Assembly (NCBI GenBank): GCA_031431095.1
Contig: JANPCT010000305.1
Span: 1 to 24,956, forward strand
From: Acidobacteriota bacterium
Lineage (GTDB): Bacteria; Acidobacteriota; Vicinamibacteria; Vicinamibacterales; 2-12-FULL-66-21
DNA: 24,956 nt
Direction of reading: 5' to 3'
The notes below the pieces were generated by a model. It worked only from the letters and a program-made list of their open reading frames with translations, was not told the DNA's origin and made no database searches. A program made the position numbers and the translations under genes. Below, piece after piece: positions 4,032 to 24,154 of this stretch. Positions within the stretch are counted from its first letter, which is position 1; the number at the start of each line of letters is the position of its first letter.

Positions 4032-4185
4032 ACGCTCGAAAGTGAAATGTGCCACGCGGCTGATGCCCCGGTTGTGTCCCGGCAGCGAACTTGCGCGCTC
4101 AAGACGGAACACTCAACTCTATCACCAGCCATATCAGCACTTTAACAAGCGAAGTTCAGCCCAAATCGCGTCCAAAAGGTTCATA

Positions 4186-4196
4186 ACGGAACACAG
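4186..4196 (+). promoter_or_regulatory. Candidate upstream activator (enhancer) site ACGGAACACAG
   Basis: An identical 11-mer lies at 8331-8341. In both places its GG is 105 bp upstream of the sigma54 -24 GG. A further ACGGAACAC lies at 4104-4112. Confidence 0.5.
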
Positions 4197-4290: not shown

Positions 4291-4307
4291 GTGGTCTGCA
4301 GATTGCT
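4291..4307 (+). promoter_or_regulatory. Sigma54 (-24/-12) promoter upstream of the S8 peptidase
   Basis: GTGGTCTGCAGATTGCT has GG at 4293-4294, a 10-nt spacer and GC at 4305-4306, with TTGCT. It lies about 35 bp upstream of ATG 4342. Confidence 0.6.
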
Positions 4308-4341: not shown

Positions 4342-6117
4342 ATGAAGTCTTCGCTCATCGCGCTGCCTGCTGCTCTCGCTGTTTGTCTGGCCTCATGGGT
4401 TGCCACGCCCGCCGGCCAGCCACAGTCGCCAACACTGTCCGACGATCTGGCTCACCACGCGCCGGGGGTGCATACGCACCGCGTCATCGTGCAGTCGTCT
4501 GACGCCGGCCTCCTCGGCGCGGTTCGCCGGGGGGTGCACGGTCTGCTCCGCCGCGAGTTGAACGGGGCGATGGCGATCGAGGTGACGGACGCGCAACTCG
4601 ATGCGCTGCGGCGCAACCCGCTCCTCGCCCACATCTCGGGTGACCTTCCGGTCGTCGGTGACATGGCCCTCACCAACAAGGTGACGGGCGCGACCGCGGT
4701 GTGGCAAGGAACTCCCGGCGGTCTGCTCGGGCTCGGCGGCACACCAGGCTACACCGGCGCCGGCGTCACCGTCGCGGTGCTCGACTCCGGCATCGCAGCG
4801 CACAGCGCGCTCGACTCGCGCGTCATCGCGCGCGTCAACCTGGTGTCGAGCGAGCCGGGCATGACGGGCGATCCCTTTGGACACGGCACACACCTCGCCG
4901 GCATCATCGGTGGCAATCGCACGGCTGCTTCGTCCGTCACGCCTTCGTTCGGCGGCGGCAGCGCGCCATCGGTGCGGCTGGTGGACGTCCGCGTGCTCGG
5001 CGCGTCGGGTTCGGGTCGCACCAGCGACGTCATCGCCGGCATCGACTGGGTCATCGCCAATCGTCAGGCCTACGGCATGCGCGTCATCAACCTGTCGTTG
5101 GGACATCCTGTGGTCGAGCCGTCCGCAACCGATCCTCTCTGCCGCGCGGTGTCGCGCGCCGTTGCGGCGGGCATCACCGTGGTAGTGTCCGCGGGCAATT
5201 ACGGCCTGACCTCGTCCGGCCAGCCCGTGCTCGGCGGCATCACCTCTCCCGGAAATTCACCTGATGCACTGACGGTCGGCGCGATCGACACGAAGGGCAC
5301 GCTGGATACCGGGGACGATGTGGTGGCGCCGTTCAGCTCGCGTGGACCGGCTCGATACGAGATCGTGGTGAAGCCGGACGTCGTGGCTCCGGGAACGCGC
5401 GTCGTCTCTCTCGAGGCGCAGCGCTCGATCATCAGCGATTCCTATCCGCAGTGGCACATCGCGGGAAGTGGAAAGAACTCGTACCTGCGCCTGAGCGGCT
5501 CGAGCATGTCGACCGCCGTCGTCAGCGGCGGCATTGCGCTGCTTCTGAACGGCCAGCCGCAACTGACGCCGGCGCAGGTGAAGATGGCGCTGCAGATGGG
5601 CGCCCGCTTCATGCCGGACGCCGGGCTCGTCGGTGGGGGCACCGGCGCGGTGGACTTCTCGCGGGCGCAGAAGATTGCGGAGGCCGGTCTGCTCGGCTCC
5701 GGCCTGACCAGTGTCAGCACCTTGCTTGGCGGGGCCTCCGGAGCGGCGTTCCGGGACGCCGGCACGCTGATCGATCGCGTCTACGATCGCAGCGGCATCC
5801 GGCTGCTGGGGATCCTCGATCTCTCCCTGGTGTTCCGTAACGCCGATAGCGCGGAGCCCGGCGTGCTCCATCTGCTCGGCACGTCGAACCCGCTCGGATA
5901 TGCGGCGCCGAATTACGTCGTCTGGGGAAACGTCGCGGGCTGGTCCAGCAGCTACTACGTTGTCTGGGGTAACTCGATCCAGGCGCCGTCCGGACAGTAC
6001 GTGGTCTGGGGCAACAACAACGTTTCGGATCCCAACTACGTGGTCTGGGGCAACGCCGATACGGCTGACGGCAGCTACGTGGTGTGGGGCAACAGCCTCC
6101 CCGGCGGCGGCCACTGA
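4342..6117 (+). CDS. Secreted S8 (subtilase) serine peptidase with five C-terminal YVVWGN repeats
   Basis: Signal peptide MKSSLIALPAALAVCLASWVATPAG and a propeptide. Triad VAVLDSG / GHGTHLAG / SGSSMS, oxyanion-hole VSAGN. The C-terminal repeats are encoded at 5914-6093. Confidence 0.9.
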   Translation: MKSSLIALPAALAVCLASWVATPAGQPQSPTLSDDLAHHAPGVHTHRVIVQSSDAGLLGAVRRGVHGLLRRELNGAMAIEVTDAQLDALRRNPLLAHISGDLPVVGDMALTNKVTGATAVWQGTPGGLLGLGGTPGYTGAGVTVAVLDSGIAAHSALDSRVIARVNLVSSEPGMTGDPFGHGTHLAGIIGGNRTAASSVTPSFGGGSAPSVRLVDVRVLGASGSGRTSDVIAGIDWVIANRQAYGMRVINLSLGHPVVEPSATDPLCRAVSRAVAAGITVVVSAGNYGLTSSGQPVLGGITSPGNSPDALTVGAIDTKGTLDTGDDVVAPFSSRGPARYEIVVKPDVVAPGTRVVSLEAQRSIISDSYPQWHIAGSGKNSYLRLSGSSMSTAVVSGGIALLLNGQPQLTPAQVKMALQMGARFMPDAGLVGGGTGAVDFSRAQKIAEAGLLGSGLTSVSTLLGGASGAAFRDAGTLIDRVYDRSGIRLLGILDLSLVFRNADSAEPGVLHLLGTSNPLGYAAPNYVVWGNVAGWSSSYYVVWGNSIQAPSGQYVVWGNNNVSDPNYVVWGNADTADGSYVVWGNSLPGGGH

Positions 6118-6128
6118 ACGAAGGGACC

Positions 6129-8081
6129 GTGAGCGAGCGCCCGAACACATCGCCAGGCCTGCCGTTCGCGGCAAGGCTCCTGGTCACGACGGTCTGCGTG
6201 TGCGGTGGCGCTGCCGCCGCGCAGAGCGTCGCCGTCCTGTTGCGCGGGACGGTGGCGCCGGAATGGGTGCTGTTTGCGGTGCTGACGGTGCTGAGCGGAA
6301 TGCTCAGCATCAAGATCCCCTCGATCCAATCGCGATTCTCCCTTGCCGAAGTATTCGGGCTGGCGTCCGTCCTCCTCTTCGGACCGGCGGTCGGCGCCGT
6401 CACGCTGGCGCTCGACGGCCTGCGCATCTCCATTTCATGGAAGATGACGAGGCAGCAGACCGCGTTCAACATTACCAACCTGGCGCTGTCGATCTGGTTG
6501 TCAGGACAGTTGTTCTTCCTCGTCAGCGGAACCGGGCCTCTCTATCGCCACGACCCGCCGGGTGCGAGCATCGTGTTGTCGCTCGCGGTGCTGGCCACCG
6601 CGTACTTCGGCGTGAACAGCGGTCTGACGGCCGCGGTGATCGCGCTGTCGGGGCGCAAATCGCCGCGCGCCGTGTGGCTCGAGCACTACTGGCCCTTGTT
6701 TCCAAGTTATCTCGCCGGAGCGTCGGTGGCACTCCTCCTGGTGCTCGCGTTCAGAGAGGTCCGCTTCACTGCCATCGCGCTGATTCTTCCGCTGATCCTG
6801 ATCTGCTACCTGACGCTGCGCTCGTCGTTCGGGCGGTTGGAAGATTCGAAGACGCACGTCGATCAGCTCAATCGGCTGCTGCTGTCAACCGTGGAGACGC
6901 TGGCCACGGCGATCGACGCCAAGGACGAAGTCACGCACGATCATGTGCGCCGCGTGCAGCAGGGCACGCTCGGCCTCGCGCGCGAGCTTGGCGTCAGCGA
7001 TCCCGATACGCTGAAGGGGCTCGAAGCCGCGGCGTTGCTGCACGACACCGGGAAGATCGCCGTACCGGAACACATCCTCAACAAGCCCGGACGTCTCACG
7101 CCGGCGGAATTCGAGACGATGAAGCGCCACGCGCCGGCCGGGGCCGATATCCTCTCGTCAATCGAGTTTCCCTATCCGGTTGTGCCGATCGTGCGCCATC
7201 ATCACGAGAACTGGGACGGCAGCGGCTATCCGGACGGACTGTCCGGCGTCGCGATTCCGCTCGGGGCGCGCATCCTGTCCGTGGTGGACTGCTACGACGC
7301 ACTCACGTCCGATCGCCCCTACCGCAAGCGCATGAGCGAGCCTGATGCGCTCAAGATCATCGTCGACCGCCGCGGCACGATGTACGATCCCATGGTCGTC
7401 GATGCGTTTCTGGGCTGCTACGGGCGCATCATGCCCGAGCCGGTGGCGACGCGCCATCCTGCGGCACAGGCGGTTGGCGCAGTCATGTCGCTCGATCGCG
7501 AAGAACACCGGGGACAGGCGATGCCGGCGCTCGACGGCAGCATGACCGACGGCTTGCTGGCAGTGACCAGTCTGTCGCGGGCGGTCTCCGGCGGCGCACG
7601 CATCGCCGATGTCGGCGCGCTGATGTGGATGGTCGTTCGGCAGGTGCTGCCGTGTGACGCCATGGCCATCTTCCTGCCCGACGAGCGGTTCGATCACGTG
7701 ACCGTCCGGTACGCGGCCGGCGCGCACGCAGTCGCCCTGCGCACGCTGACGCGCGCGTCGGGCACCGGCATCGCGGGTTGGGTCGCCGTCAACCGCCAGG
7801 CGGCGCTCAATGCGGATCCGGCACTCGACTTCGGCCTGACCTCGGCGGCGCCGCCGCTGCGGTCGTGTCTGGCCAGCCCTCTGATCGAAGGGGACTCGCT
7901 CGTGGCCGTGCTCGCCCTCTACCGTGACGGCCCGGGCGCCTTCTCCGAAGACGACGTCCGCCTCGTGGAGCTCCTCGCGCCGCGGCTCGCCTCGTCACTG
8001 GTTGACGCCGCCGGGGCCGAGCGGAGCGCAACCAGCACGCCAGCTTTGAAGCTGGTAAGAAGCCACTCGCAGGGTGCCTGA
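6129..8081 (+). CDS. Membrane-bound HD-GYP cyclic-dinucleotide phosphodiesterase with N-terminal multi-TM sensor and C-terminal GAF domain
   Basis: GTG at 6129 is 11 bp after the peptidase stop. There are roughly 6-7 hydrophobic segments. The HD-GYP motifs are intact: AIDAKD..T..H..RV, LLHDTGK, RHHHENWDGSGYPDGL, VVDCYDALTSDRPYR. The GAF signature is GIAGWVA...LNAD...PL...VLALY...F.EDD. Confidence 0.9.
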   Translation: MSERPNTSPGLPFAARLLVTTVCVCGGAAAAQSVAVLLRGTVAPEWVLFAVLTVLSGMLSIKIPSIQSRFSLAEVFGLASVLLFGPAVGAVTLALDGLRISISWKMTRQQTAFNITNLALSIWLSGQLFFLVSGTGPLYRHDPPGASIVLSLAVLATAYFGVNSGLTAAVIALSGRKSPRAVWLEHYWPLFPSYLAGASVALLLVLAFREVRFTAIALILPLILICYLTLRSSFGRLEDSKTHVDQLNRLLLSTVETLATAIDAKDEVTHDHVRRVQQGTLGLARELGVSDPDTLKGLEAAALLHDTGKIAVPEHILNKPGRLTPAEFETMKRHAPAGADILSSIEFPYPVVPIVRHHHENWDGSGYPDGLSGVAIPLGARILSVVDCYDALTSDRPYRKRMSEPDALKIIVDRRGTMYDPMVVDAFLGCYGRIMPEPVATRHPAAQAVGAVMSLDREEHRGQAMPALDGSMTDGLLAVTSLSRAVSGGARIADVGALMWMVVRQVLPCDAMAIFLPDERFDHVTVRYAAGAHAVALRTLTRASGTGIAGWVAVNRQAALNADPALDFGLTSAAPPLRSCLASPLIEGDSLVAVLALYRDGPGAFSEDDVRLVELLAPRLASSLVDAAGAERSATSTPALKLVRSHSQGA

Positions 8082-8174
8082 AAAATTGGCGCTCTCGGAC
8101 CTTCCGCCTGAAGGCGGAAAACTCAGGAACTCCAACTCAGGGCTCTGTAGTTTCCGCCTTTAGGCGGAATTCAC
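8067..8174. repeat. REP-like element copy 1: inverted pair of TTCCGCCT-NN-AGGCGGAA palindromes with left flank
   Basis: Palindromes at 8102-8119 and 8152-8169, the latter preceded by GTAG at 8147-8150. It is near-identical to the elements at 14346-14549 and 24858-24926. Confidence 0.85.
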
Positions 8175-8330
8175 CTCTCGTCCGGCCGCATCAAGGCAAC
8201 TGTCTCCGGTCCCCGCAAAGCGGGTCAAAATAGCGTTTCAAGTTCCAAAATAAGACAACTACAGCTAAGTTTAATGGCTGTAACGTTTAGGTCCATAAAA
8301 AGCTATCGTTTAGTGTTCATTTGTACCTTT

Positions 8331-8341
8331 ACGGAACACAG
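8331..8341 (+). promoter_or_regulatory. Candidate upstream activator site ACGGAACACAG, part of GTGTTC-N15-GAACAC dyad (8313-8339)
   Basis: Identical to 4186-4196, with the same 105-bp spacing to a sigma54 -24 element. A perfect 6-bp inverted partner GTGTTC lies at 8313-8318. Confidence 0.5.
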
Positions 8342-8435
8342 AGTCCGTCCGAGCTGACAAGCCTTGACCAACGCTTGTCGCTCATAAGTCCATATCAGAC
8401 AACATTTTGCAAACGCGTTTCATATATGGAACGGG

Positions 8436-8452
8436 CTGGCTCGTCAATTGCT
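8436..8452 (+). promoter_or_regulatory. Sigma54 (-24/-12) promoter upstream of first stand-alone GAF gene
   Basis: CTGGCTCGTCAATTGCT has GG at 8438-8439, a 10-nt spacer and GC at 8450-8451. It is close to the consensus YTGGCACG-N3-TTGCW. Confidence 0.7.
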
Positions 8453-8557
8453 CTGTTACAGGGAATGAACGAGTGCCCGAGCATTCCTGAGCCGGCCGCG
8501 TCGCGCTGTCACGAGGGGCCGACCACCTTCGAAACCGCAGCCCCCACGGAGGGGCGC

Positions 8558-9121
8558 ATGCCGGGCGCCGAACGGACCGGCGACGCGTTGCTGGCAATCG
8601 CCAGCCTGGCGCGCGCATTGGACGGTAATGCCAGGCTCGCCGACGTCGGGGCGCTGGTGTGGATGCTGTTGCGTCAACTCGTTCCGGCTGACGCCATCGC
8701 CCTCTTTCTCCCCGATGAGCACAACGATCACGTCGTCGTCCGTTACGCCGGCGGCCTGCATGCCGATGGATTGAGCGGTGTGGCGCGTCCGATCGCGATG
8801 GGAATTGCCGGCTGCGTGGCGGTGAACCGGCGGGCCGTTCTCAACGCCGACCCAAGCGTGGACCTTGGCTTGCGGGGTGCCGCGGCGCCCGCATTGCGTG
8901 CCTGCCTGGTGACGCCGCTCGTCGACAGCGATGCGCTCGTCGCGGTGCTGGCGCTGTACTCGAAAACGGTAAATGGATTCACGGACGATCATCTGCGGCT
9001 CCTCGAAGTGCTCGCCCCGCGGCTGGCGTCGGCTCTTGTCGATGCCGCCATCGCGGACGAAGACAGCCTGGCAGCGGTCGGCGACGTGCCGCGCGCGCTG
9101 AGACTCGTGCACACCAACTAG
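8558..9121 (+). CDS. Stand-alone GAF domain protein (paralogue of the HD-GYP C-terminal GAF)
   Basis: ATG 8558 has SD GGAGGGG at 8548-8554; ATG 8465 is an alternative start. It aligns without large gaps to the GAF of 6129-8081 (ADVGAL.W, D..A.FLPDE..DHV.VRYA.G, GIAG.VAVNR, VAVLALY, LAPRLAS.LVDAA). Confidence 0.85.
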   Translation: MPGAERTGDALLAIASLARALDGNARLADVGALVWMLLRQLVPADAIALFLPDEHNDHVVVRYAGGLHADGLSGVARPIAMGIAGCVAVNRRAVLNADPSVDLGLRGAAAPALRACLVTPLVDSDALVAVLALYSKTVNGFTDDHLRLLEVLAPRLASALVDAAIADEDSLAAVGDVPRALRLVHTN

Positions 9122-9137
9122 AGCGGCGCCTCAGCGG

Positions 9138-9212
9138 GGGCGGACACTGTCCTCCGATCGATGCCCACCAGGCGGTGGGCGACGAGTGCAATCGGAGCAC
9201 AGTGTCCCGCCC
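9138..9212. other. Long imperfect inverted repeat / hairpin between the two GAF genes
   Basis: Stacked stems GGGCG/CGCCC, GACACTGT/ACAGTGTC, CTCCGAT/ATCGGAG and GCCCACC/GGTGGGC, with loop AGGC. Confidence 0.6.
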
Positions 9213-9275
9213 TCGGGCCGGAGGACGGACCACGCGGCGATCGTAACTGTGGAACACGGAGACTGACCGGTGAAA

Positions 9276-9827
9276 ATGACGAATTCCGCGGCGCTGGACG
9301 ACGGCATCATGGCGATCGGCGGGTTGTCGCGCGCGCTGGGCGGCCAGGCGGTGCTGGCCGACGTCGGATCGCTGTTGTGGGTGCTGATCCGCCAGGTGGT
9401 GCGGTGCGACACGATGGCGATGTTCACGGCCGATGAGTCCCGCGATCAGGTTGTCATCCGCTACGCCGCCGGCGTGCATGCGAACGTGCTCGACGGCATC
9501 GCGCGTCCGCGCTCCACAGGCATCGCGGGCTGGGTCGCCAGCAACCGGCTGCCCGTCCTGAACGCGGAACCAATCATCGACCTCGGCTTCCGCGCCTCCG
9601 TCGCTCCGGCATTGCGGTCGTCGCTGGTGGTGCCGCTCGTCGAGGAGTGTGCGCTCGTCGCCATCCTCGCGCTCTACTCCACTGAACTGCTCGCCTTCAC
9701 GGACGATCACGTCGAGATGCTCGGTGTGCTCGGTCCGCGGCTGGCGCGAACACTCGGCGACGCGGTCGTCGATCGCCCGCACCGCATCGCGGAGACCCCC
9801 GTGCTGCGCCTGGTCGGGGGGAGTTAG
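9276..9827 (+). CDS. Second stand-alone GAF domain protein (same paralogous family)
   Basis: ATG 9276 (or GTG 9270) with GGAGA at 9258-9262. Same GAF signature: ADVGSLLW, RYAAG.HA, GIAGWVASNR, LVAILALY, FTDDH. Confidence 0.85.
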   Translation: MTNSAALDDGIMAIGGLSRALGGQAVLADVGSLLWVLIRQVVRCDTMAMFTADESRDQVVIRYAAGVHANVLDGIARPRSTGIAGWVASNRLPVLNAEPIIDLGFRASVAPALRSSLVVPLVEECALVAILALYSTELLAFTDDHVEMLGVLGPRLARTLGDAVVDRPHRIAETPVLRLVGGS

Positions 9828-9835
9828 GGAAGCCA

Positions 9836-9878
9836 GGTTTGTAGTTTGTGGTTGGGAGTTCGTAGTTTGTAGTTGTAG
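9836..9878. repeat. Degenerate ~7-bp short tandem repeat (TTGTAGT-like)
   Basis: ggtttgtagtttgtggttgggagttcgtagtttgtagttgtag immediately follows the GAF gene stop. Confidence 0.6.
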
Positions 9879-9941
9879 ACGACCGCTGAGTCTGTGCGAA
9901 CCCTCGTGCGGTAATATCCGCGTGCTGGCGATGAGACGCAC

Positions 9942-10757
9942 TTGCTGATTCGATTACGCGGCGTCAGGGGATCGGTGCCGTGGTCCGTGCCGGACGGAAT
10001 CATTCACGGCTGCAACACCCCCTGCATCGAGGTGTTCGACGAGCGCACGGGCGGCCTGCTCATTCTCGATGCCGGTTCCGGCATTGCCGGCGTCAACCCC
10101 GCGGAGCTGGCCGGGTCCCCGTCCGCGCGTGCTGTGTCACTCGTCCTCACCCACTACCACTGGGATCACCTGCTCGGCCTGCCGTTCTTCACGACGTTGT
10201 ACGAGCCCGGATGGGACCTGACCATCCACACCCCGCGGCTCGAGTCGCACGATCCCACGTGGCTGGCGACGATCTTCAAATCATCGTTCTTCCCGGTGCC
10301 GTACCAGCACCTGCCGAACCGCCCGACGGTGCGGATGGTCGAGGCGGGCCCGGTTAACGTCCCCGGCTTCGAGATGACCGCGCTCGGGCTCAATCATCCC
10401 GGCGGTGCGATGGCGTACCGGATCAAGGGCGTCACCGGTGATTTCGTCTACGCTACCGACCACGAGTTTGGCGATCCGGCTTATGACGAGCCGCTCGCCT
10501 ACTTCGTCCGCGGCGCCGCCGCCATCGTCCTGGATGCGCACTTCACTCCTGCCGAGCGGGTGCACCACCGCGGTTGGGGGCACAGCGACTGGCGGCAGTG
10601 CGCCGAGTTTGCGGCTGCCAACGCAATTGGCCGGCTCTACCTCTTCCATCACAAGCCGGGGCGATCCGACATCGCCCTCGACCACATTCGCGATGAGGCG
10701 CGGATGGTGTTCAACGCCACCGACACCGCGAAGGAAGAGGCAACGATCGTCATCTGA
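9942..10757 (+). CDS. Metallo-beta-lactamase-fold hydrolase (RNase Z/PhnP-like, putative phosphodiesterase)
   Basis: N-terminal GVRGSVP, NTPC and ILDAGSG, HxHxDH motif THYHWDH, NHPGG, YATDHE and WGHS. TTG start. Confidence 0.85.
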   Translation: MLIRLRGVRGSVPWSVPDGIIHGCNTPCIEVFDERTGGLLILDAGSGIAGVNPAELAGSPSARAVSLVLTHYHWDHLLGLPFFTTLYEPGWDLTIHTPRLESHDPTWLATIFKSSFFPVPYQHLPNRPTVRMVEAGPVNVPGFEMTALGLNHPGGAMAYRIKGVTGDFVYATDHEFGDPAYDEPLAYFVRGAAAIVLDAHFTPAERVHHRGWGHSDWRQCAEFAAANAIGRLYLFHHKPGRSDIALDHIRDEARMVFNATDTAKEEATIVI

Positions 10758-10799: not shown

Positions 10800-11765
10800 T
10801 CAGCGCGGTCCGAAACCTTCGCGATAGCCGCGGCGGAATCCGACGCGGTAGCCGGCCTGGTATTCGGTTAGCGATCCGAGCCGGCCTTCATACCCGGAGT
10901 CGGCCCCTTCGAGCTCGCGCTGGCCTTCGAGATCCCAGCCGCGCGGCTTGTCTTCACGCCCCGCCTGCACGCCTTCCTGCTGGCCGCGCTGGTACCCGGC
11001 GCGATACGCCTCTGACTGGCCGGGCAGCACCGTGGCGGCGGAGTTCTCGAACTCCTGGCGCGACAGCCGGCTGTCGTGATTGATGTCGAGGCGATCGAAC
11101 GCCGCCGCATTCCAGTGCCATTCATCGCGCGACACGGCGCGGTCGTTGTTCACGTCCATGCTGGTGAACACGTCCTGGCCGGCGCCTTCGGTGCCGACGG
11201 CCTCGGCCCGGGTCAGCGTACCGTCGCGGTTGGCGTCGAGCGCGTCGAACACCGCCGTGCTGCCGTGCCACTCGGCGCGCGTCAGGCGCCCGTCGCGATT
11301 GTCGTCGAGGTCGCCGAACTGATCTTCGCGGTCGTCGTCTCCCACGAGCGCGAATTCGGTCGCGCTCAGGAAATTGTCGCGGTTGCGATCGGCCCGTGTG
11401 AACAGTTCCGCCGCGGCGTGCCATTCGTTGCGGGCGAGGCGGCCGTCGCCGTTGTGATCGAGTGCGCGGAAGCGCTCGGGACTCCAGTCGTCTTCCCGCT
11501 CGATCGACGCTTCGATGTCGCGATCGTCCCAGCCGTTCGCGCGCTGCGCGCCGACGCGTATCTCGTCACCCGACAGCCGCCCGTCGCCATTCCAGTCGTG
11601 GTTGCGGAACGAGCGATCGTTGCCGCGCCACTCGTCGCGGGTGATGACGCCGTCGGAGTTCTTGTCCATACCCTGGAATCGCGTGTTGCCCCCACGCCCC
11701 TGCGCGCCCGCGCGGGCGGGACTGGTCAGGCATACCGCGGCGGCGATGCAAATCATCAGTTTCAT
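10800..11765 (-). CDS. Exported EF-hand repeat protein (8 Ca2+-binding loops) with Tyr/Gly-rich C-terminal domain
   Basis: Signal peptide and SD AGGAG. Loops DKNSDGVITRDE, DWNGDGRLSGDE, DHNGDGRLARNE, DRNRDNFLSATE, DDNRDGRLTRAE, DANRDGTLTRAE, DVNNDRAVSRDE and DINHDSRLSRQE. Confidence 0.85.
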   Translation of the reverse strand: MKLMICIAAAVCLTSPARAGAQGRGGNTRFQGMDKNSDGVITRDEWRGNDRSFRNHDWNGDGRLSGDEIRVGAQRANGWDDRDIEASIEREDDWSPERFRALDHNGDGRLARNEWHAAAELFTRADRNRDNFLSATEFALVGDDDREDQFGDLDDNRDGRLTRAEWHGSTAVFDALDANRDGTLTRAEAVGTEGAGQDVFTSMDVNNDRAVSRDEWHWNAAAFDRLDINHDSRLSRQEFENSAATVLPGQSEAYRAGYQRGQQEGVQAGREDKPRGWDLEGQRELEGADSGYEGRLGSLTEYQAGYRVGFRRGYREGFGPR

Positions 11766-11836: not shown

Positions 11837-12490
11837 CTAGAAGAACGGCAGGGGTGGTTGCGCCAGGATCGGAATGCGCAGGCGGCCGGCGCCATTGGCC
11901 GAGAACAGCGGCTCACGGCCGATGCGTCCAACCGACTCGTCCGCGGCTCGATTGAAGGCATCGAGCAGATCCAGCGTCCGCGTCCCTGGCCGCCGCGGCC
12001 GCCGCAACTGCCGCAACAGCGCGCCGGTGAAGAACCCGTTGACGCTGTTTTCGCGCGCGCGTGAATCGGGAGCACACGACGCCAGCACCACCGGCCGGCG
12101 ATCATCCGGCAACTCGCCGAGTGCCTGCTCGAGGCGCCGCATTCGATCGTCGGCGTGACACGTGTCGAGGACCAGCACGCGAAGGTGCGTGTCCCTGGCC
12201 CGCGCAAGTGCGTCGATCAGGGGATCGATCGAGTAGAGATGCCCGCTCCAGAAGAGAAGCAGAAGATCGAGATCCTCGAGGCTGCTGCAACTCGCGAGAT
12301 GCGCCTCGATCGCGGCGGGTGCGGCCTGAACACCGGTGAGGCAGCGATTGCGTTCGGCCCGCCAGTAGCCCAGCTGGGCGAAGGTCCAGGAAACGCCGAA
12401 GGCATCGCGCTCGGCGGAGCGCACGGTCGCGCCGTTGGCTTCATGGTTCACGCCAACGGAAAGCAGGTGATAGCGAAAATCGCGTGCCAT
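11837..12490 (-). CDS. Caspase-family (peptidase C14) protein, stand-alone and compact
   Basis: ATG 12490 with SD GGAG 8 nt upstream. Ordered C14 motifs HLLSVGVN, AERDA, LLLFWSGH (His), VLVLDTCH (Cys) and VVLASC..DSRARE...GFFTGALL. Confidence 0.7.
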   Translation of the reverse strand: MARDFRYHLLSVGVNHEANGATVRSAERDAFGVSWTFAQLGYWRAERNRCLTGVQAAPAAIEAHLASCSSLEDLDLLLLFWSGHLYSIDPLIDALARARDTHLRVLVLDTCHADDRMRRLEQALGELPDDRRPVVLASCAPDSRARENSVNGFFTGALLRQLRRPRRPGTRTLDLLDAFNRAADESVGRIGREPLFSANGAGRLRIPILAQPPLPFF

Positions 12491-12603
12491 GCCCGGCACT
12501 CCAGATGTCGGCGCAAGACCGGCTGAGCTTTAGGCACGTACCTCATGGTGATTACATCTTGGTGTCTTCTGTCCAGAAGCAGGCCGCAACCCGCCCACCT
12601 GGC

Positions 12604-16832: not shown

Positions 16833-19685
16833 ATGAACTCGCCGCTGCGCCGCCTGCTGTTCGTCACCACACTCGTCACGCTCGCATCGCTTCCGCTGGC
16901 GGCCCGGCAGGCGGCAGCACCGGCTCCCGCGGCGCCAGCGCAAGCGGTCAACCTGCAGCAGGCGCTGCCGTTCGATGCGGCCGTCAAGACCGGCACGCTG
17001 GCCAACGGCTTGAAGTATTACGTCCGCCAGAACAGCCGTCCCGCCAACCGGTTGGTGTTGCGGCTCGCGGTCAAGACCGGGTCGCTCGACGAAGCCGACG
17101 ATCAGCAGGGACTCGCGCACGTGCTCGAGCACATGGCGTTCAACGGCAGCGCCCACTTCAAGCCGGGCGAGCTGGTCTCGTACTTCGAGTCGATCGGCGC
17201 GAGGCTCGGGCCGCACCTCAACGCGCAAACCGGCTTCGAAGACACGATCTACATGCTCGACCTGCCGACCGACAAGCCCGCCATCGTCGAAAAGGGACTG
17301 ACGGCGTTCGCGGATTTCGCCGGCGGGTTGACACTCGATCCCAAAGAGATCGACAAGGAGCGTGGCGTCGTCATCGAGGAATGGCGCGGCGGCCTCGGCG
17401 CCGGCTCGCGCATTCGCGACAAGCAGATCCCCGTCCTCTTCTATCAGTCGCGCTACGCGGACCGCCTGCCGATCGGCAAGCCCGAAGTGCTGAAAACATT
17501 CCCGCCGGCCCGGCTGCGCGCTTTCTACGACGCCTACTATCGCCCCTCGAACATGGCGGTGGTGCTCGTCGGCGACATGGACGCGCAAAAGCTCGAGGAC
17601 ATGGCGAAGGCGACGTTCGGCGGCCTGGCGCCACGCGGTGCGGCGCCGGCGCCGCGCAAGGTGACCGTACCGCTGCACAAGGAAACGCTGGTCAGCGTCG
17701 TCACCGATTCGGAGATCACGCAATCGTCGGTGTCGCTGATCAGCAAGCGCGAGCGCGGCTCGTCGGACAAGGTCGGCGACTACCGCCGCAGCCTGGTGCA
17801 GCGCTTCTTCGAGCAGATGCTGAACGATCGGCTCGACGAATTGTCGCGGCGTGCCGACGCCAGGTTCCTCGGCGCCGGCATCGGCGGCGGCGGCTTGAGC
17901 CCCGACGTCGAGACGGTGTCGCTCGGCGCCACCGTTCAGAGCGGGGGCATCACCGAAGGCCTGGCGTCGGTCGCGCTCGAGGCCAAGCGCGCGCGCGAGT
18001 TCGGTTTCAGCGCCGCGGAACTGGATCGCGCCAAGAAGTGGATGGCGGCGTTCTACGAGCGCGCCTACACCGAGCGCGAGAAGACGGAGAGCGGATCGTT
18101 CGCCCAGGAATACCTGAATCACTTCCTCGAAGGGGAGCCCAGCCCCGGGATTGCCTATGAGTACAACCTGGTGCGGCAGATGCTGCCCGGGATCACGATC
18201 GAGGAAGTGACGGCGCTCGGCAAGACCCTCCTCGCCAACGACAGCCGCGTCATCCTGGCGACCTCGCCGCAGAAAGCCGACATCAGGGTTCCGACGGCCG
18301 ACGAGCTCAAGGCGGCGCTCACCACGGTCGAGTCCACGACGGTGACGGCGTGGAAGGAGACGACCTCCACACGGGAGCTGATCGAGCGGAAGCCGGTGGC
18401 GGCCGCCATCACCGCCACCCGCAAGGTCGACGAAGTCGGGCTGACCGTCGTGAAGTTCGCCAACGGCGTCGAAGCCTGGCTGAAGCCGACGGACTTCAAG
18501 AACGATCAGATCGTGTTCGCCCTCCAGGCGAAGGGGGGGACGTCGCTGGCTCCCCCTGCCGAGTACTTCGATGCGTCGCTGGCCAGCGCCTACGTCAATC
18601 TCTCGGGCGCCGCGGGGCTCAAGGCGCTCGACATGCAGAAGCTGCTCGCCGGAAGGATCGCCGCCGCGACGCCGTTTGCGTCACTCTCGACGCACGGCTT
18701 CAACGGGTCCGCGGCCCCGGCGCAGCTCGAGACCGCGCTGCAGCTCCTCTACGCCCGGTTCACCCAGCCGGGCGACGATCCTGAAGCCTTCGACCTGCTC
18801 AAGCGGCAGCTCAATTCGTTCGTGGCGAATCGCCTCGACAATCCTGAAACGGTCTACGGCGACACACTCGAGGCAGTCAACACCTCGAAGCATTACACGT
18901 CGACGCCGCCGACCGTGGAGCGCGTCAACGCGCTCGATCGCGCGAAGATGATGAACTTCTACCGCCAGCGTTTCTCGAGCGCCGCCGATTTCACCTTCTT
19001 CATGGTCGGCGCCTTCAGAATCGAGGACGCGCTGCCGCTGCTGGCGCAATACGTCGGCGGCCTGCCGTCAACCGGCACGGCGTCGTCCGATTTCAAGGAC
19101 CTCGGAATCATGTTTCCCGCGGCGACCGAGCGCGCAAGAGTGGAGAAGGGGCGCGAGCCGAAAAGCGAAACGGTAATCAGCTATTTCGCCGACCCGCCCG
19201 GGAGTGACGCGATGGAGCAGGAGCGCGCGCTCGCCGCCACCGACGTGCTCGAAATCGCCCTGCGCGACATCCTGCGCGAGGAGTTGGGACAGACCTATAC
19301 CGTGTCGGTGGACCTGTCGCAGGGCCTGCCGCAGCGCGGCGGCGGCCACGTCGAGGTGAGCTTCAGCGCTGCGCCCGAGAACATCGAGAAGATGGGCGCG
19401 CGCGTGATGCAGGAAATTCAGCGGCTGCAGAAGGAAGGTCCGACCGAGGATCTGGTGAACCGCGCCAAGGAAACCGCGCGCCGCAACTACGAAACGCAGC
19501 TGCGGCAGAACGACTACTGGCTCCGCCGCTTCCAGGCCGTACAGTTGTGGGGGCAGGAGCCCGGCATCATCGCGCACCGCCTCGACCGCATCAATGCCGT
19601 CACGCCGGCCTCGGTGCAGGAGGCCTTCAAGAAGTACTTCCCTGCCGATCGCATGACCGTCGTCACGCTCGTGCCGGCGAAGTAG
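16833..19685 (+). CDS. M16 family zinc metallopeptidase (PqqL-like, exported)
   Basis: Signal peptide. Inverted zincin HVLEH, GLAHVLEHMAFNG, NAQT.FE.T.Y and ERGVVIEEWR. Two-halved 950-aa architecture (LANGL.. and FANGV..). Confidence 0.92.
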   Translation: MNSPLRRLLFVTTLVTLASLPLAARQAAAPAPAAPAQAVNLQQALPFDAAVKTGTLANGLKYYVRQNSRPANRLVLRLAVKTGSLDEADDQQGLAHVLEHMAFNGSAHFKPGELVSYFESIGARLGPHLNAQTGFEDTIYMLDLPTDKPAIVEKGLTAFADFAGGLTLDPKEIDKERGVVIEEWRGGLGAGSRIRDKQIPVLFYQSRYADRLPIGKPEVLKTFPPARLRAFYDAYYRPSNMAVVLVGDMDAQKLEDMAKATFGGLAPRGAAPAPRKVTVPLHKETLVSVVTDSEITQSSVSLISKRERGSSDKVGDYRRSLVQRFFEQMLNDRLDELSRRADARFLGAGIGGGGLSPDVETVSLGATVQSGGITEGLASVALEAKRAREFGFSAAELDRAKKWMAAFYERAYTEREKTESGSFAQEYLNHFLEGEPSPGIAYEYNLVRQMLPGITIEEVTALGKTLLANDSRVILATSPQKADIRVPTADELKAALTTVESTTVTAWKETTSTRELIERKPVAAAITATRKVDEVGLTVVKFANGVEAWLKPTDFKNDQIVFALQAKGGTSLAPPAEYFDASLASAYVNLSGAAGLKALDMQKLLAGRIAAATPFASLSTHGFNGSAAPAQLETALQLLYARFTQPGDDPEAFDLLKRQLNSFVANRLDNPETVYGDTLEAVNTSKHYTSTPPTVERVNALDRAKMMNFYRQRFSSAADFTFFMVGAFRIEDALPLLAQYVGGLPSTGTASSDFKDLGIMFPAATERARVEKGREPKSETVISYFADPPGSDAMEQERALAATDVLEIALRDILREELGQTYTVSVDLSQGLPQRGGGHVEVSFSAAPENIEKMGARVMQEIQRLQKEGPTEDLVNRAKETARRNYETQLRQNDYWLRRFQAVQLWGQEPGIIAHRLDRINAVTPASVQEAFKKYFPADRMTVVTLVPAK

Positions 19686-22217: not shown

Positions 22218-22637
22218 ATGACAGACCAAGCCTTCGCCCGGGCCGTCGAGTCCGGAAGCGTGACGCCGGCGGAGTTCGGCCACCTTGCCCATGTCCGCGT
22301 CGCCTGGGTCTACCTGCACGAGGCGGCTTCCGTGGAGGACGCGCTGTCGACAATGCGCGCGGCGATCCAGCGGTTCGCCTCAGCCGCAGGCGTGCCGCAG
22401 AAATATCACGAGACGATCACGGTCTTCTGGATGCGCCTGCTTGCCAACGTCAGGGCACTCGGCGCCGCCGGCGAGCTGGCGGAGGTGTTGCGTGAATTTC
22501 CCGCGCTCGCCGACAAGGACCTTCCGCTGCGTTATTACTCCCGCGAACGCCTGTTCAGTGACGAGGCGCGCACCGGCTGGGTGGATCCCGATCGACGGCC
22601 CCACGGCGTGATAGCGTTTCATGACACGGAGGCGTGA
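22218..22637 (+). CDS. Conserved hypothetical protein
   Basis: ATG at 22218. The pattern F.H..H.R.AW.YL...KYHETIT.FW...YYS.E.L.S..AR..WV.PD resembles an uncharacterised family recalled from bacteria and fungi. The stop overlaps the next start (TGATG). Confidence 0.7.
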   Translation: MTDQAFARAVESGSVTPAEFGHLAHVRVAWVYLHEAASVEDALSTMRAAIQRFASAAGVPQKYHETITVFWMRLLANVRALGAAGELAEVLREFPALADKDLPLRYYSRERLFSDEARTGWVDPDRRPHGVIAFHDTEA

Positions 22638-24154
22638 TGACTCGATTGATCCGGATTCGCGTGGCCCTCGGCATCCTGCTCGCGGCGATCGTGCTGATGG
22701 CGCACCCGCCGCGCCTCGCCGGACAACTCGCGGCGACGCCGATGGACGTCATGCCGGCCGCTCGCGCTGCGGCGTTCGTTGACGCCGCCGCCCGCGGTGT
22801 CGATTACCTTCCCGGCGAGGTCATCGTCAGGTTCAAGGACGGCGTCACGCCGGTGCGGCAGCAGCGGGCGCTCGACGCGCTGCGCAGCCGGCCGGCGGTG
22901 GCCGCGCTCGAGTGGGAGGGGGAGGTCGCGATCCTGCGCGACGCTTCGCAGCCCGACGCCACCATCCTCGCGGCGCAGCTTGCTTCGCAGCCGGAAGTTC
23001 TCTACGCCGAGCCCAACTACCTGCGGCATCACGACGCGACGCCGAACGACACGGGCTACGGTCCGCGTCAATGGAACCTCCAGGCGCTCGACATGCCGAA
23101 GGCGTGGGACATCAACCCCGGCGCCGGCAGCGGCATCATCGTCGCCGTCGTCGACTCGGGCGTGACGACGGAGAACACGACGCGGACGGTGGCGACATGG
23201 AACGGGTCGGCGATCCAGACCATCACCGTTGCTTATGCGACCAACCCCGATCTCGCGGCGAGCCGCCTCGTCAGCCCCTTCGATTTCGTCACCAACGGCG
23301 GAACCACGGTGCTCGATTCGGACGGCCACGGAACGCATGTCAGCTCGACGATCGGTGAGGACACGAACAACGCGCTCCTCGACGCCGGTATCGCCTATAA
23401 CGCGCGCATCATGCCGGTGAAGGTGTGCACCAGCTACTGGGATGTGCAGTTCGCGTTTTCCGCAGCCGGCGGGCGGGGCTTCGTGCCGAGAGACGCGGGC
23501 GGCTGTCCGACATCCGCGGTCGGCGCAGGCGTCCGTTACGCCGCCGACAACGGCGCGAAGATCATCAACATCAGTCTCGGCGGCAGCAATCCATCGGTGA
23601 CGGAACAGGAGGCGATCAGCTACGCGGTGGGCAAGGGCGCGTTCGTCGCTGTCGCCGCAGGCAACGAAAAGCTGGAGGGCAATGCGGTGCACTACCCGGC
23701 GTCGTACGCCGCATCGATCGGCGGGGCCATGGCGGTCGGCGCGACCAACCGCTCCGGTAATCGCGCCTTCTACTCCAACACCGGCAGTTACGTGGAGATC
23801 GCGGCGCCCGGAGGTGATTCGCGCGACAGCGACGCCAGCGGCAACGGATTTGTCTGGCAGTCCACGATCCGCCCCTCGCTGAGCGCTCCGTCCGCGGTGA
23901 TCTTCCCGCGATTCGATTCGTATGCGGAGGTCGGCTATTCCGGCACGTCGATGGCGACACCGCACGTCGCCGGCCTGGCGGCGCTCCTTGCCGCGCAGGG
24001 CGTCACGGCCCCCTCGGCGATCGAGGACCTGATCAAACGCACGGCGAAGTTCCTCGGAACCGCGAGCGCCAGCAACGCCAGCCGGAGCGACGACTTCGGC
24101 TTCGGCCTCATCCAACCCCGGCCCGCGCTGTTCGGGTTCGGCATCCGGAAGTAG
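22637..24154 (+). CDS. Secreted S8 (subtilase) serine peptidase with N-terminal prodomain
   Basis: SD GGAGG at 22628-22632 and a signal peptide. Prodomain Y.PGEVIVRF...YAEPNY; triad VAVVDSG / GHGTHV / GTSMATPHVAG, plus AAGN. Confidence 0.92.
   Translation: MTRLIRIRVALGILLAAIVLMAHPPRLAGQLAATPMDVMPAARAAAFVDAAARGVDYLPGEVIVRFKDGVTPVRQQRALDALRSRPAVAALEWEGEVAILRDASQPDATILAAQLASQPEVLYAEPNYLRHHDATPNDTGYGPRQWNLQALDMPKAWDINPGAGSGIIVAVVDSGVTTENTTRTVATWNGSAIQTITVAYATNPDLAASRLVSPFDFVTNGGTTVLDSDGHGTHVSSTIGEDTNNALLDAGIAYNARIMPVKVCTSYWDVQFAFSAAGGRGFVPRDAGGCPTSAVGAGVRYAADNGAKIINISLGGSNPSVTEQEAISYAVGKGAFVAVAAGNEKLEGNAVHYPASYAASIGGAMAVGATNRSGNRAFYSNTGSYVEIAAPGGDSRDSDASGNGFVWQSTIRPSLSAPSAVIFPRFDSYAEVGYSGTSMATPHVAGLAALLAAQGVTAPSAIEDLIKRTAKFLGTASASNASRSDDFGFGLIQPRPALFGFGIRK

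Follow-up and report, generated by a model that had tools for sequence, protein, structure and literature searches.

The window analysed here is a contig of 24,956 nucleotides (66% GC) from a soil or sediment metagenome-assembled genome (MAG) of the Vicinamibacterales (Acidobacteriota), with an assembly of 1068 contigs and a completeness of 89%. It carries a gene for an S8-family subtilase that ends in a tail of identical short tryptophan peptides, followed at once by a gene for a membrane HD-GYP protein with an N-terminal MASE9 domain. The tailed S8 protease and the MASE9 protein are the core conserved unit of this region: their pairing recurs, and the free GAF and MBL-fold genes that follow them in the window were seen at none of 80 related loci. 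Within this unit, the type of the tail peptide changes together with the MASE9 domain. On balance we favour, with some reserve, an interpretation in which MASE9 has the tail motif, whether released or still tethered, as its cognate ligand, and in which ligand occupancy would control the HD-GYP domain. The two genes look like an undescribed signalling pair leading from a peptide to cyclic di-GMP (c-di-GMP); no paper describing the S8-tail/MASE9 pairing was found in the literature.

An earlier note, made from the letters of the window, had gathered the subtilase, the HD-GYP enzyme, two free GAF proteins and an MBL hydrolase into one protease-gated switch. The five co-oriented genes all exist as it described them, and its central idea, a functional pair of repeat-tailed subtilase and membrane HD-GYP enzyme, was borne out: the pair is conserved. 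The extension of the module to five genes was not, as only the first two genes are conserved.

The repeat-tailed subtilase and its MASE9 neighbour

The subtilase gene (4342-6117, + strand, as are all features below unless stated) encodes a signal peptide, a propeptide, a catalytic domain, a linker of ~60 residues and the repeat tail. Besides the signal peptide, the translation shows a match to Pfam Peptidase_S8 (PF00082) with 165 bits (cut-off 21.8; E=2e-48) and the catalytic Asp, His and Ser motifs, of which D148, H181 and S388 are invariant in a 61-sequence alignment. AlphaFold2 (AF2) models the catalytic core confidently.

The tail array (5914-6093) consists of five identical YVVWGN hexapeptides, beginning at 5914, 5956, 5998, 6037 and 6076, with a period of 13-14 residues and non-identical spacers of 7-8 residues; the codons differ among the copies. 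In the 120 S8 orthologues that were collected (identity 68-100%), each protein holds four or five copies of Y[V/I/L]VWGN, with perfect uniformity in 115 of the 120 arrays. Each spacer has its orthologue in the other proteins yet is dissimilar to the remaining spacers of its own protein, and codons vary among the copies in 5/5 arrays with DNA at hand. Since codons and spacers differ while the peptide remains identical, selection acts on the peptide. Homogenisation of the DNA as a source of the uniform repeats was ruled out by the differing codons of these five arrays. The tail and the region of the first free GAF gene were reproduced, with no indels, by logan contigs, which are independent assemblies from four sediment metagenome runs of two studies. 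The search for runs holding the locus returned sediment metagenome DNA only and no RNA run.

Tails of S8 proteins beside MASE9 genes elsewhere are likewise arrays of short lineage-specific units, many of them in perfect tandem copies, of which there can be up to 15-17. Their motifs include SIIWGN, TMIWDN, TIMWGD, GLVWSN, QALWGD, SAMWGS, NIVWGN, GITLSE and GIVVAS. For the tail of the window protein, AF2 predicts residues 514-591 to be unfolded, with a predicted local distance difference test (pLDDT) of 26-40. A left-handed beta-helix (PF00132) was considered and rejected on this low pLDDT, on the absence of a Pfam match and on the period, which is 13-14 and not 6 or 18. No dibasic (KR/RR) site of the Kex2 type lies between the copies in the spacers of the 120 orthologues, the PatA/PatG cyanobactin-type protease model TIGR03895 gives 25 bits against a cut-off of 421, and no mini-gene ending in the tail motif was found in any frame of the window.

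In three long-read MAGs, the tails are out of frame with the S8 body: SIVWTD (L019:9528-9890), EILWGD/TIVWGN (L077:9113-9664) and ADSLVWGN (L080:9307-9894). These are probably indel errors in the repeats, so that automatic gene calls would miss the tail.

The second gene (6129-8081) begins with a GTG located 11 nt past the S8 stop at 6117, a spacing that the earlier note had given correctly. It encodes a protein of 650 residues with MASE9, HD-GYP and GAF domains, of the same length in a 98%-identical orthologue. The HD-GYP domain (6900-7397, residues 258-423) matches HD_5 (PF13487) at 141.9 bits (E=2e-41), covering positions 3-170 of 170. Its catalytic motifs, already read as intact in the earlier note, are invariant in the alignment, both for the HD pair (H305, D306) and for HHENWDGSGYP (H358, H359, E360, G366, Y367, P368). 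The protein is thereby a putative c-di-GMP phosphodiesterase. A GAF domain occupies its C-terminal part (7629-7997, residues 501-623; GAF_2 E=6e-13).

The N-terminal membrane sensor (6165-6863, ~residues 13-245) had been called possibly MASE9-like. The window protein itself scores below threshold against Pfam MASE9 (PF20972; 15.8 bits, E=0.014, gathering score 24.3), and the assignment is carried by its relatives: two orthologues 66-70% identical to it (P0033, 31.4 bits; P0068, 31.0 bits), a paralogue from its own genome (30.9 bits) and the neighbour at locus L083 (28.3 bits) all exceed that score. The AF2 model of residues 1-260 (pLDDT 93) comprises helices at 13-39, 45-57, 72-84, 86-103, 108-133, 148-175, 179-211 and 213-259 with a hairpin at 61-70. 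It reproduces, N-terminal to a c-di-GMP enzyme, the eight helical segments and short intramembrane hairpin of MASE9, a domain for which intramembrane ligand binding has been proposed (Galperin and Chou, bioRxiv 10.1101/2021.11.05.467447).

The model also has the fold of the S components of energy-coupling factor (ECF) transporters. In a VIA-align comparison with 48,161 PDB representatives, the top 14 chains were all ECF S components (NikM/CbiM, RibU, FolT, ThiT, BioY and PanT among them) with Z of 10.3-15.0, the next unrelated chain reaching 8.4. The structural alignments extend over 150-190 residues and cover the entire S component, and Foldseek concurs with probabilities of 0.97-1.0. At the sequence level, matches to ECF-ribofla_trS (PF07155) stay at 18.5-22.9 bits, below the family cut-off of 26.7. 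S components bind small ligands at their outer face, beneath the L1 loop.

The association of the two genes extends well beyond the window. A scan of species-representative genomes provided 80 related loci, among them 38 full-length MASE9-HD-GYP loci with sufficient upstream flank. At 16 of these 38, the immediate upstream neighbour is an S8 gene in the same orientation, and at three more an S8 gene lies within 10 kb; the loci span Vicinamibacteria, Terriglobia and Blastocatellia. A free GAF or MBL homologue was seen at 0/80 related loci. In a sample of 300 Acidobacteriota genomes, where neighbours were paired by hand from coordinate tables, ~35 of ~100 MASE9-type matches have an S8 match adjacent or within a few kb; among the best 25 S8 homologues of that sample, 14 are directly upstream of a MASE9-type gene and five lie at contig ends. 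The linkage of WG-repeat subtilases to c-di-GMP enzymes, on which the earlier note had let its proposal depend, holds across genomes.

The same genome harbours a second, anciently diverged pair on contig C213 (locus L016, G000:C213, 43-5837), with 42% and 34% identity to the first, in the order sigma-54 activator, S8, MASE9-HD-GYP-GAF-GGDEF. The activator is an AAA+ protein with HTH_8 whose N-terminus is cut by the contig end. The S8 protein has degenerate VIWG repeats and a Cys-rich end, and the sensor start overlaps the S8 stop. Further afield, a GGDEF-MASE9-HD-GYP gene of an actinomycete MAG is preceded by the gene for an S8 protein whose tail is (ASW)n.

Co-variation of peptide type and sensor, and how it may be read

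The earlier note had supposed that the protease or its tail provides a signal to the membrane domain. The tail is the likely signal, given that the hexapeptide type co-varies with MASE9 only. At least three types were observed, with V, I or L at peptide position 2. The comparison relies on 35 S8/sensor pairs: the window, 24 pairs joined by equal-sized contigs in two hit tables and ten from nine fetched loci (L097, L099-L106), of which L102 gives two.

On a tree of the S8 body built from 120 sequences, the peptide type undergoes 36 changes (shuffled mean 43) and the copy number only four (shuffled mean 27). Copy number follows the S8 tree, which is therefore informative, and type does not. For the 35 pairs, the peptide type requires 13 changes on the tree of the S8 catalytic part. 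The HD-GYP-GAF tree demands 12, and both numbers fall within the shuffle range. Only three are needed on the MASE9 tree, where the possible minimum is two and 0/1000 shuffles gave seven or fewer. A window sliding along both proteins limits the association to sensor residues ~22-258 (z 8-17), with tail spacers at z ~3 and everything else below 2.3, including the S8 linker and the HD-GYP part just past MASE9. In nucleotides, the association is absent 0-180 nt upstream of the tail, within the S8 linker, but the far end of MASE9, which lies 700-900 nt downstream, shows it strongly.

Individual residues follow the type as well. MASE9 residue 61 is I, V and L for the V, I and L peptides, respectively. 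Residue 67 alternates between Q and D/E, residue 75 between V and A and residue 90 between A and V/I, and positions 58, 103, 149, 169, 195 and 214 also track the peptide. In independent contrasts taken from the trees of the flanking domains, a change of peptide is accompanied by a change at residues 67, 75 and 90 in 7/7 and 6/6 cases (sign test, p=0.016 and p=0.031). Several of the strongest type-specific residues (58, 61, 63, 67 and 68) would fall in the loop and hairpin that match the L1 lid of the S components, as judged from secondary-structure positions and not from coordinates.

Two comparisons make the pattern visible at single loci. The window (V type) and L100 (L type) share 93% of their residues in HD-GYP and 84% in the catalytic part of S8, but identity drops to 59.5% in MASE9. 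At L102:1953-9602, the whole pair is tandemly duplicated (S8, sensor, S8, sensor) with YLVWGN and YIVWGN tails; the two HD-GYP domains are 88% identical and the MASE9 domains just 61.5%, which suggests that the catalytic halves were homogenised by gene conversion. The pattern is that of a specificity cassette, made up of tail motif and MASE9 and reshuffled between conserved flanks.

From these observations, a mechanism can be proposed. The S8 subtilase would be exported, its unstructured tail displaying multiple identical hydrophobic tryptophan peptides, here YVVWGN. The peptide would most likely be released by the protease itself; alternatively, the tail could act while attached. Subtilisins prefer hydrophobic residues at P4 and P1, and Y-V-V-W followed by G would fit such a site. 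MASE9, with its fold as in the vitamin-binding ECF S components, would bind the cognate tail motif, each V, I or L motif being matched to its own sensor type. Occupancy by the ligand may then make the cytoplasmic HD-GYP phosphodiesterase more or less active and so shift the cellular level of c-di-GMP. Carried further, the tail could be a built-in multi-copy pheromone precursor, giving rise to diffusible tryptophan hexapeptides that act between cells as pherotypes, of V, I and L type here and with widely diverging motifs in other lineages, each read by the matching MASE9 and setting c-di-GMP. We hold this extended version tentatively, as possible rather than probable.

Several points weigh against the tail motif as the ligand of MASE9. 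For 24 of the 35 pairs, the pairing rests on contigs of equal size across two hit tables. The DNA of the tail adjoins that of MASE9, and part of their co-variation could reflect the inheritance of one recombination block, because the tail spacers also carry some type signal. Only three type changes are seen on the MASE9 tree, and the count of independent co-switches relies on the trees of the flanking domains. Telling V, I and L apart would require fine discrimination by a receptor. The hexapeptide has non-conserved neighbours on both sides, which makes the exact cleavage product uncertain. Finally, about half of the MASE9-HD-GYP-GAF loci have no S8 gene nearby, and MASE9 is thus not confined to an S8 tail as its source of ligand; no stand-alone repeat-peptide gene was found at the MASE9 loci devoid of S8. 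A complex prediction for MASE9 (1-260) and the tail (S8 residues 505-591) returned a score of 0.02 with the tail unfolded, which counts for neither side. In return, the associated block ends sharply and asymmetrically, which, like the uniformity at the peptide level, argues for co-adaptation.

The same linkage and co-variation would be expected if the tail were never cut and served to dock the mature protease on MASE9. The sensor would then report whether the protease is present, occupied or degraded, or would position it at the membrane, with the repeats providing multivalency. An unfolded tail suits a docking peptide, and the variable flanks of the motif make a defined cleavage uncertain. 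However, docking to a single pocket hardly accounts for arrays of up to 15-17 perfect copies, pockets of the S-component type take small ligands, and the motif resembles a good subtilisin site. We regard such a purely docking tail as rather unlikely.

Alternatively, the tail could be a structural repeat, such as a beta-solenoid or a module binding the envelope, its match with MASE9 being the result of hitch-hiking in one recombination block. The hexapeptide periodicity of other lineages loosely recalls a left-handed beta-helix, and the tail spacers share part of the type signal. Against this stand the lack of any predicted fold (pLDDT 26-40) or Pfam repeat family for the tail and a period of 13-14 that corresponds to neither 6 nor 18. 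Moreover, V, I and L remain unmixed in 115/120 arrays despite codon differences, although hydrophobic packing would tolerate mixtures, and an association that is absent from the S8 linker yet strong at the far end of MASE9 is no simple decay with distance. A structural role of this kind appears improbable.

Promoters and downstream genes

The S8 and HD-GYP genes appear to form a two-gene operon dependent on sigma-54. A -24/-12 element of this type (TGG-N8-TTGC) lies upstream of the S8 gene at 4292-4307, and both the TGG and the TTGC are invariant in 11/11 upstream regions of S8 genes; the same pattern occurs seven times on the two strands of the window. An imperfect palindrome of the GGTTCA-N5-GGAACA type (4176-4196), ~107 nt upstream of the -24 GG, is a candidate site for an enhancer-binding protein, and a TGTTCC...GGAACA block is conserved in the alignment of the 11 regions.

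The HD-GYP stop (8081) is separated from the first free GAF gene, GAF1, by 476 nt containing a hairpin repeat and a separate sigma-54-type promoter; the block therefore comprises at least two transcription units. This second promoter (8437-8452) would serve GAF1 and probably the second free GAF gene, GAF2, and its element precedes the third gene in the window and in 8/8 relatives (9/9 regions). A second candidate enhancer site (TGTACC-N5-GGAACA, 8322-8341) contains the same 11-mer as found at 4186, so that both promoters of the window share an 11-mer, set in a palindrome-like site that precedes the GG by 107 nt. Ahead of GAF2 and of the MBL gene, no such promoter element was found.

Two copies of the hairpin TTCCGCCT-NN-AGGCGGAA (8102-8119 and 8151-8168, within 8078-8174, no strand assigned) are not part of the module. 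In the source metagenomes, this region has a depth of 140-550 against ~5-15 on its flanks, and many contigs break there; it looks like a dispersed repeat of the repetitive extragenic palindromic (REP) or miniature inverted-repeat transposable element (MITE) kind.

GAF1 (8558-9121) is preferably started at the ATG at 8558, behind a GGAGG, rather than at 8321. GAF2 (9270-9827) is a stand-alone gene with a Pfam GAF match, and an MBL-fold gene follows (9942-10757). The earlier note had recognised the free GAFs as copies of the enzyme's own GAF domain, and the identities of 57% (GAF1) and 49% (GAF2) agree with it. Close relatives, with S8 proteins 72-81% identical, have the order S8, MASE9-HD-GYP-GAF, soluble HD-GYP-GAF (~420 residues) and GAF (~190-220 residues); some contain a single GAF gene. 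GAF1 equals the GAF half of the relatives' third gene, with 68-72% identity by tblastn to its residues ~229-418. No remnant of the corresponding HD-GYP half (third-gene residues 1-228) was found in 8082-8557, and within 8082-8600 the promoter stretch alone is conserved with relatives at the DNA level. GAF2 is orthologous to the relatives' fourth gene (58% identity to that of L097). The free GAFs are thus truncated tandem duplicates from which MASE9 disappeared first and HD-GYP afterwards, restricted to the close sublineage. They probably act on the enzyme, by contacts between GAF domains or as binders of the same ligand, but this is speculative.

The MBL gene lies outside the system: it is missing from the equivalent position in relatives, contrary to the earlier view of it as the last member of the module. 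At L104, the GAF gene is directly followed by a C14 peptidase gene, and the MBL and EF-hand genes of the window are missing there. A single cyclic-nucleotide module of subtilase, HD-GYP, two GAFs and MBL thus has very little chance of being right: the genes are co-oriented, GAF1 has the promoter type and upstream site of the operon, and the MBL protein faintly matches a cyclic-nucleotide phosphodiesterase family (NF041851; 27.5 bits, cut-off 400), but the missing MBL gene already contradicts its membership, the GAFs are degraded duplicates of one close sublineage and neither GAF2 nor MBL was found to have a promoter element in front of it.

Other genes of the neighbourhood deserve mention. A small stand-alone caspase-like C14 gene lies downstream of the GAFs (11837-12499, - strand), in a synteny kept in L098 and L104, and a gene for a secreted protein with many EF-hand calcium-binding repeats is located at 10800-11765 (- strand). 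The window also encodes a 950-residue M16 (insulinase-type) peptidase (16833-19685) and a second S8 protein, which has a prodomain of the fervidolysin type and lacks a repeat tail (22634-24154); both are possible peptide-processing enzymes. In some relatives (L099:13718-16150, L101:9693-12125), a MacB/FtsX-type ABC permease gene stands on the opposite strand between the sensor and GAF genes.

Known systems and significance

Proteins with the architectures MASE9-HD-GYP and MASE9-HD-GYP-GAF-GGDEF have been described, such as T. maritima TM1467 and S. venezuelae HdgA, and the paper on MASE9 names neither a ligand, nor a protease partner, nor a relation to ECF S components (bioRxiv 10.1101/2021.11.05.467447). 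The window protein shares their domain family and architecture, in agreement with its AF2 model. Added here are a candidate source of ligand, type-specific residues and the S-component fold. With the S components themselves (RibU, ThiT, BioY, FolT, CbiM/NikM), the membrane domain shares its fold (Z 10-15) and weak sequence matches of its orthologues. It differs from them by its fusion to signalling domains, by Pfam scores that remain below threshold and by the absence of ECF T/A genes among the open reading frames of the window; its presumed role is sensing.

A functional parallel is found in agr quorum sensing, in which the AgrD peptide and the AgrC membrane sensor fall into specificity groups. 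Both systems have a cassette of hypervariable peptide and sensor half between conserved catalytic flanks, and in both, matched types ignore phylogeny. AgrB, a thiolactone and a histidine kinase are all absent from the pair described here. Its multi-copy peptide is fused to its own S8 protease, its sensor has the S-component fold, its output would be the hydrolysis of c-di-GMP and its host is a diderm acidobacterium.

Multi-copy precursors cut by subtilases are also known from yeast alpha-factor with Kex2 and from the fungal Kex2-processed repeat peptides. Common to these and to the S8 tails are identical short copies with spacers, a protease of the S8 family and copies that do not vary inside one species but do so from species to species. 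In the bacterial case, however, protease and precursor are one polypeptide, located in the periplasm or outside the cell, without dibasic sites, and the candidate receptor is not a G protein-coupled receptor.

As for regulation, FleQ and VpsR are examples of sigma-54 control linked to c-di-GMP. The sigma-54-type promoters with upstream palindromes before the module and the sigma-54 activator gene beside the paralogous pair recall this arrangement, with the difference that the window contains no activator gene.

MASE9 is widespread among c-di-GMP enzymes and has no known ligand; a short tryptophan peptide encoded by the neighbouring gene is a concrete candidate. The domain also gains a structural frame, in the form of an S-component pocket, and named specificity residues. 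To our knowledge, little has been learned of peptide signalling in soil phyla beyond systems of the Bacillota type, and the Acidobacteriota are among the most abundant and least studied of these phyla. If true, the proposed mechanism would represent a new signalling design, in which a protease carries its own multi-copy signal, with reassorting types as in agr and a direct link to c-di-GMP. Should the pheromone version also be true, the Acidobacteriota would possess a peptide quorum sensing wired straight to c-di-GMP, and MASE9 would have its first class of ligands.

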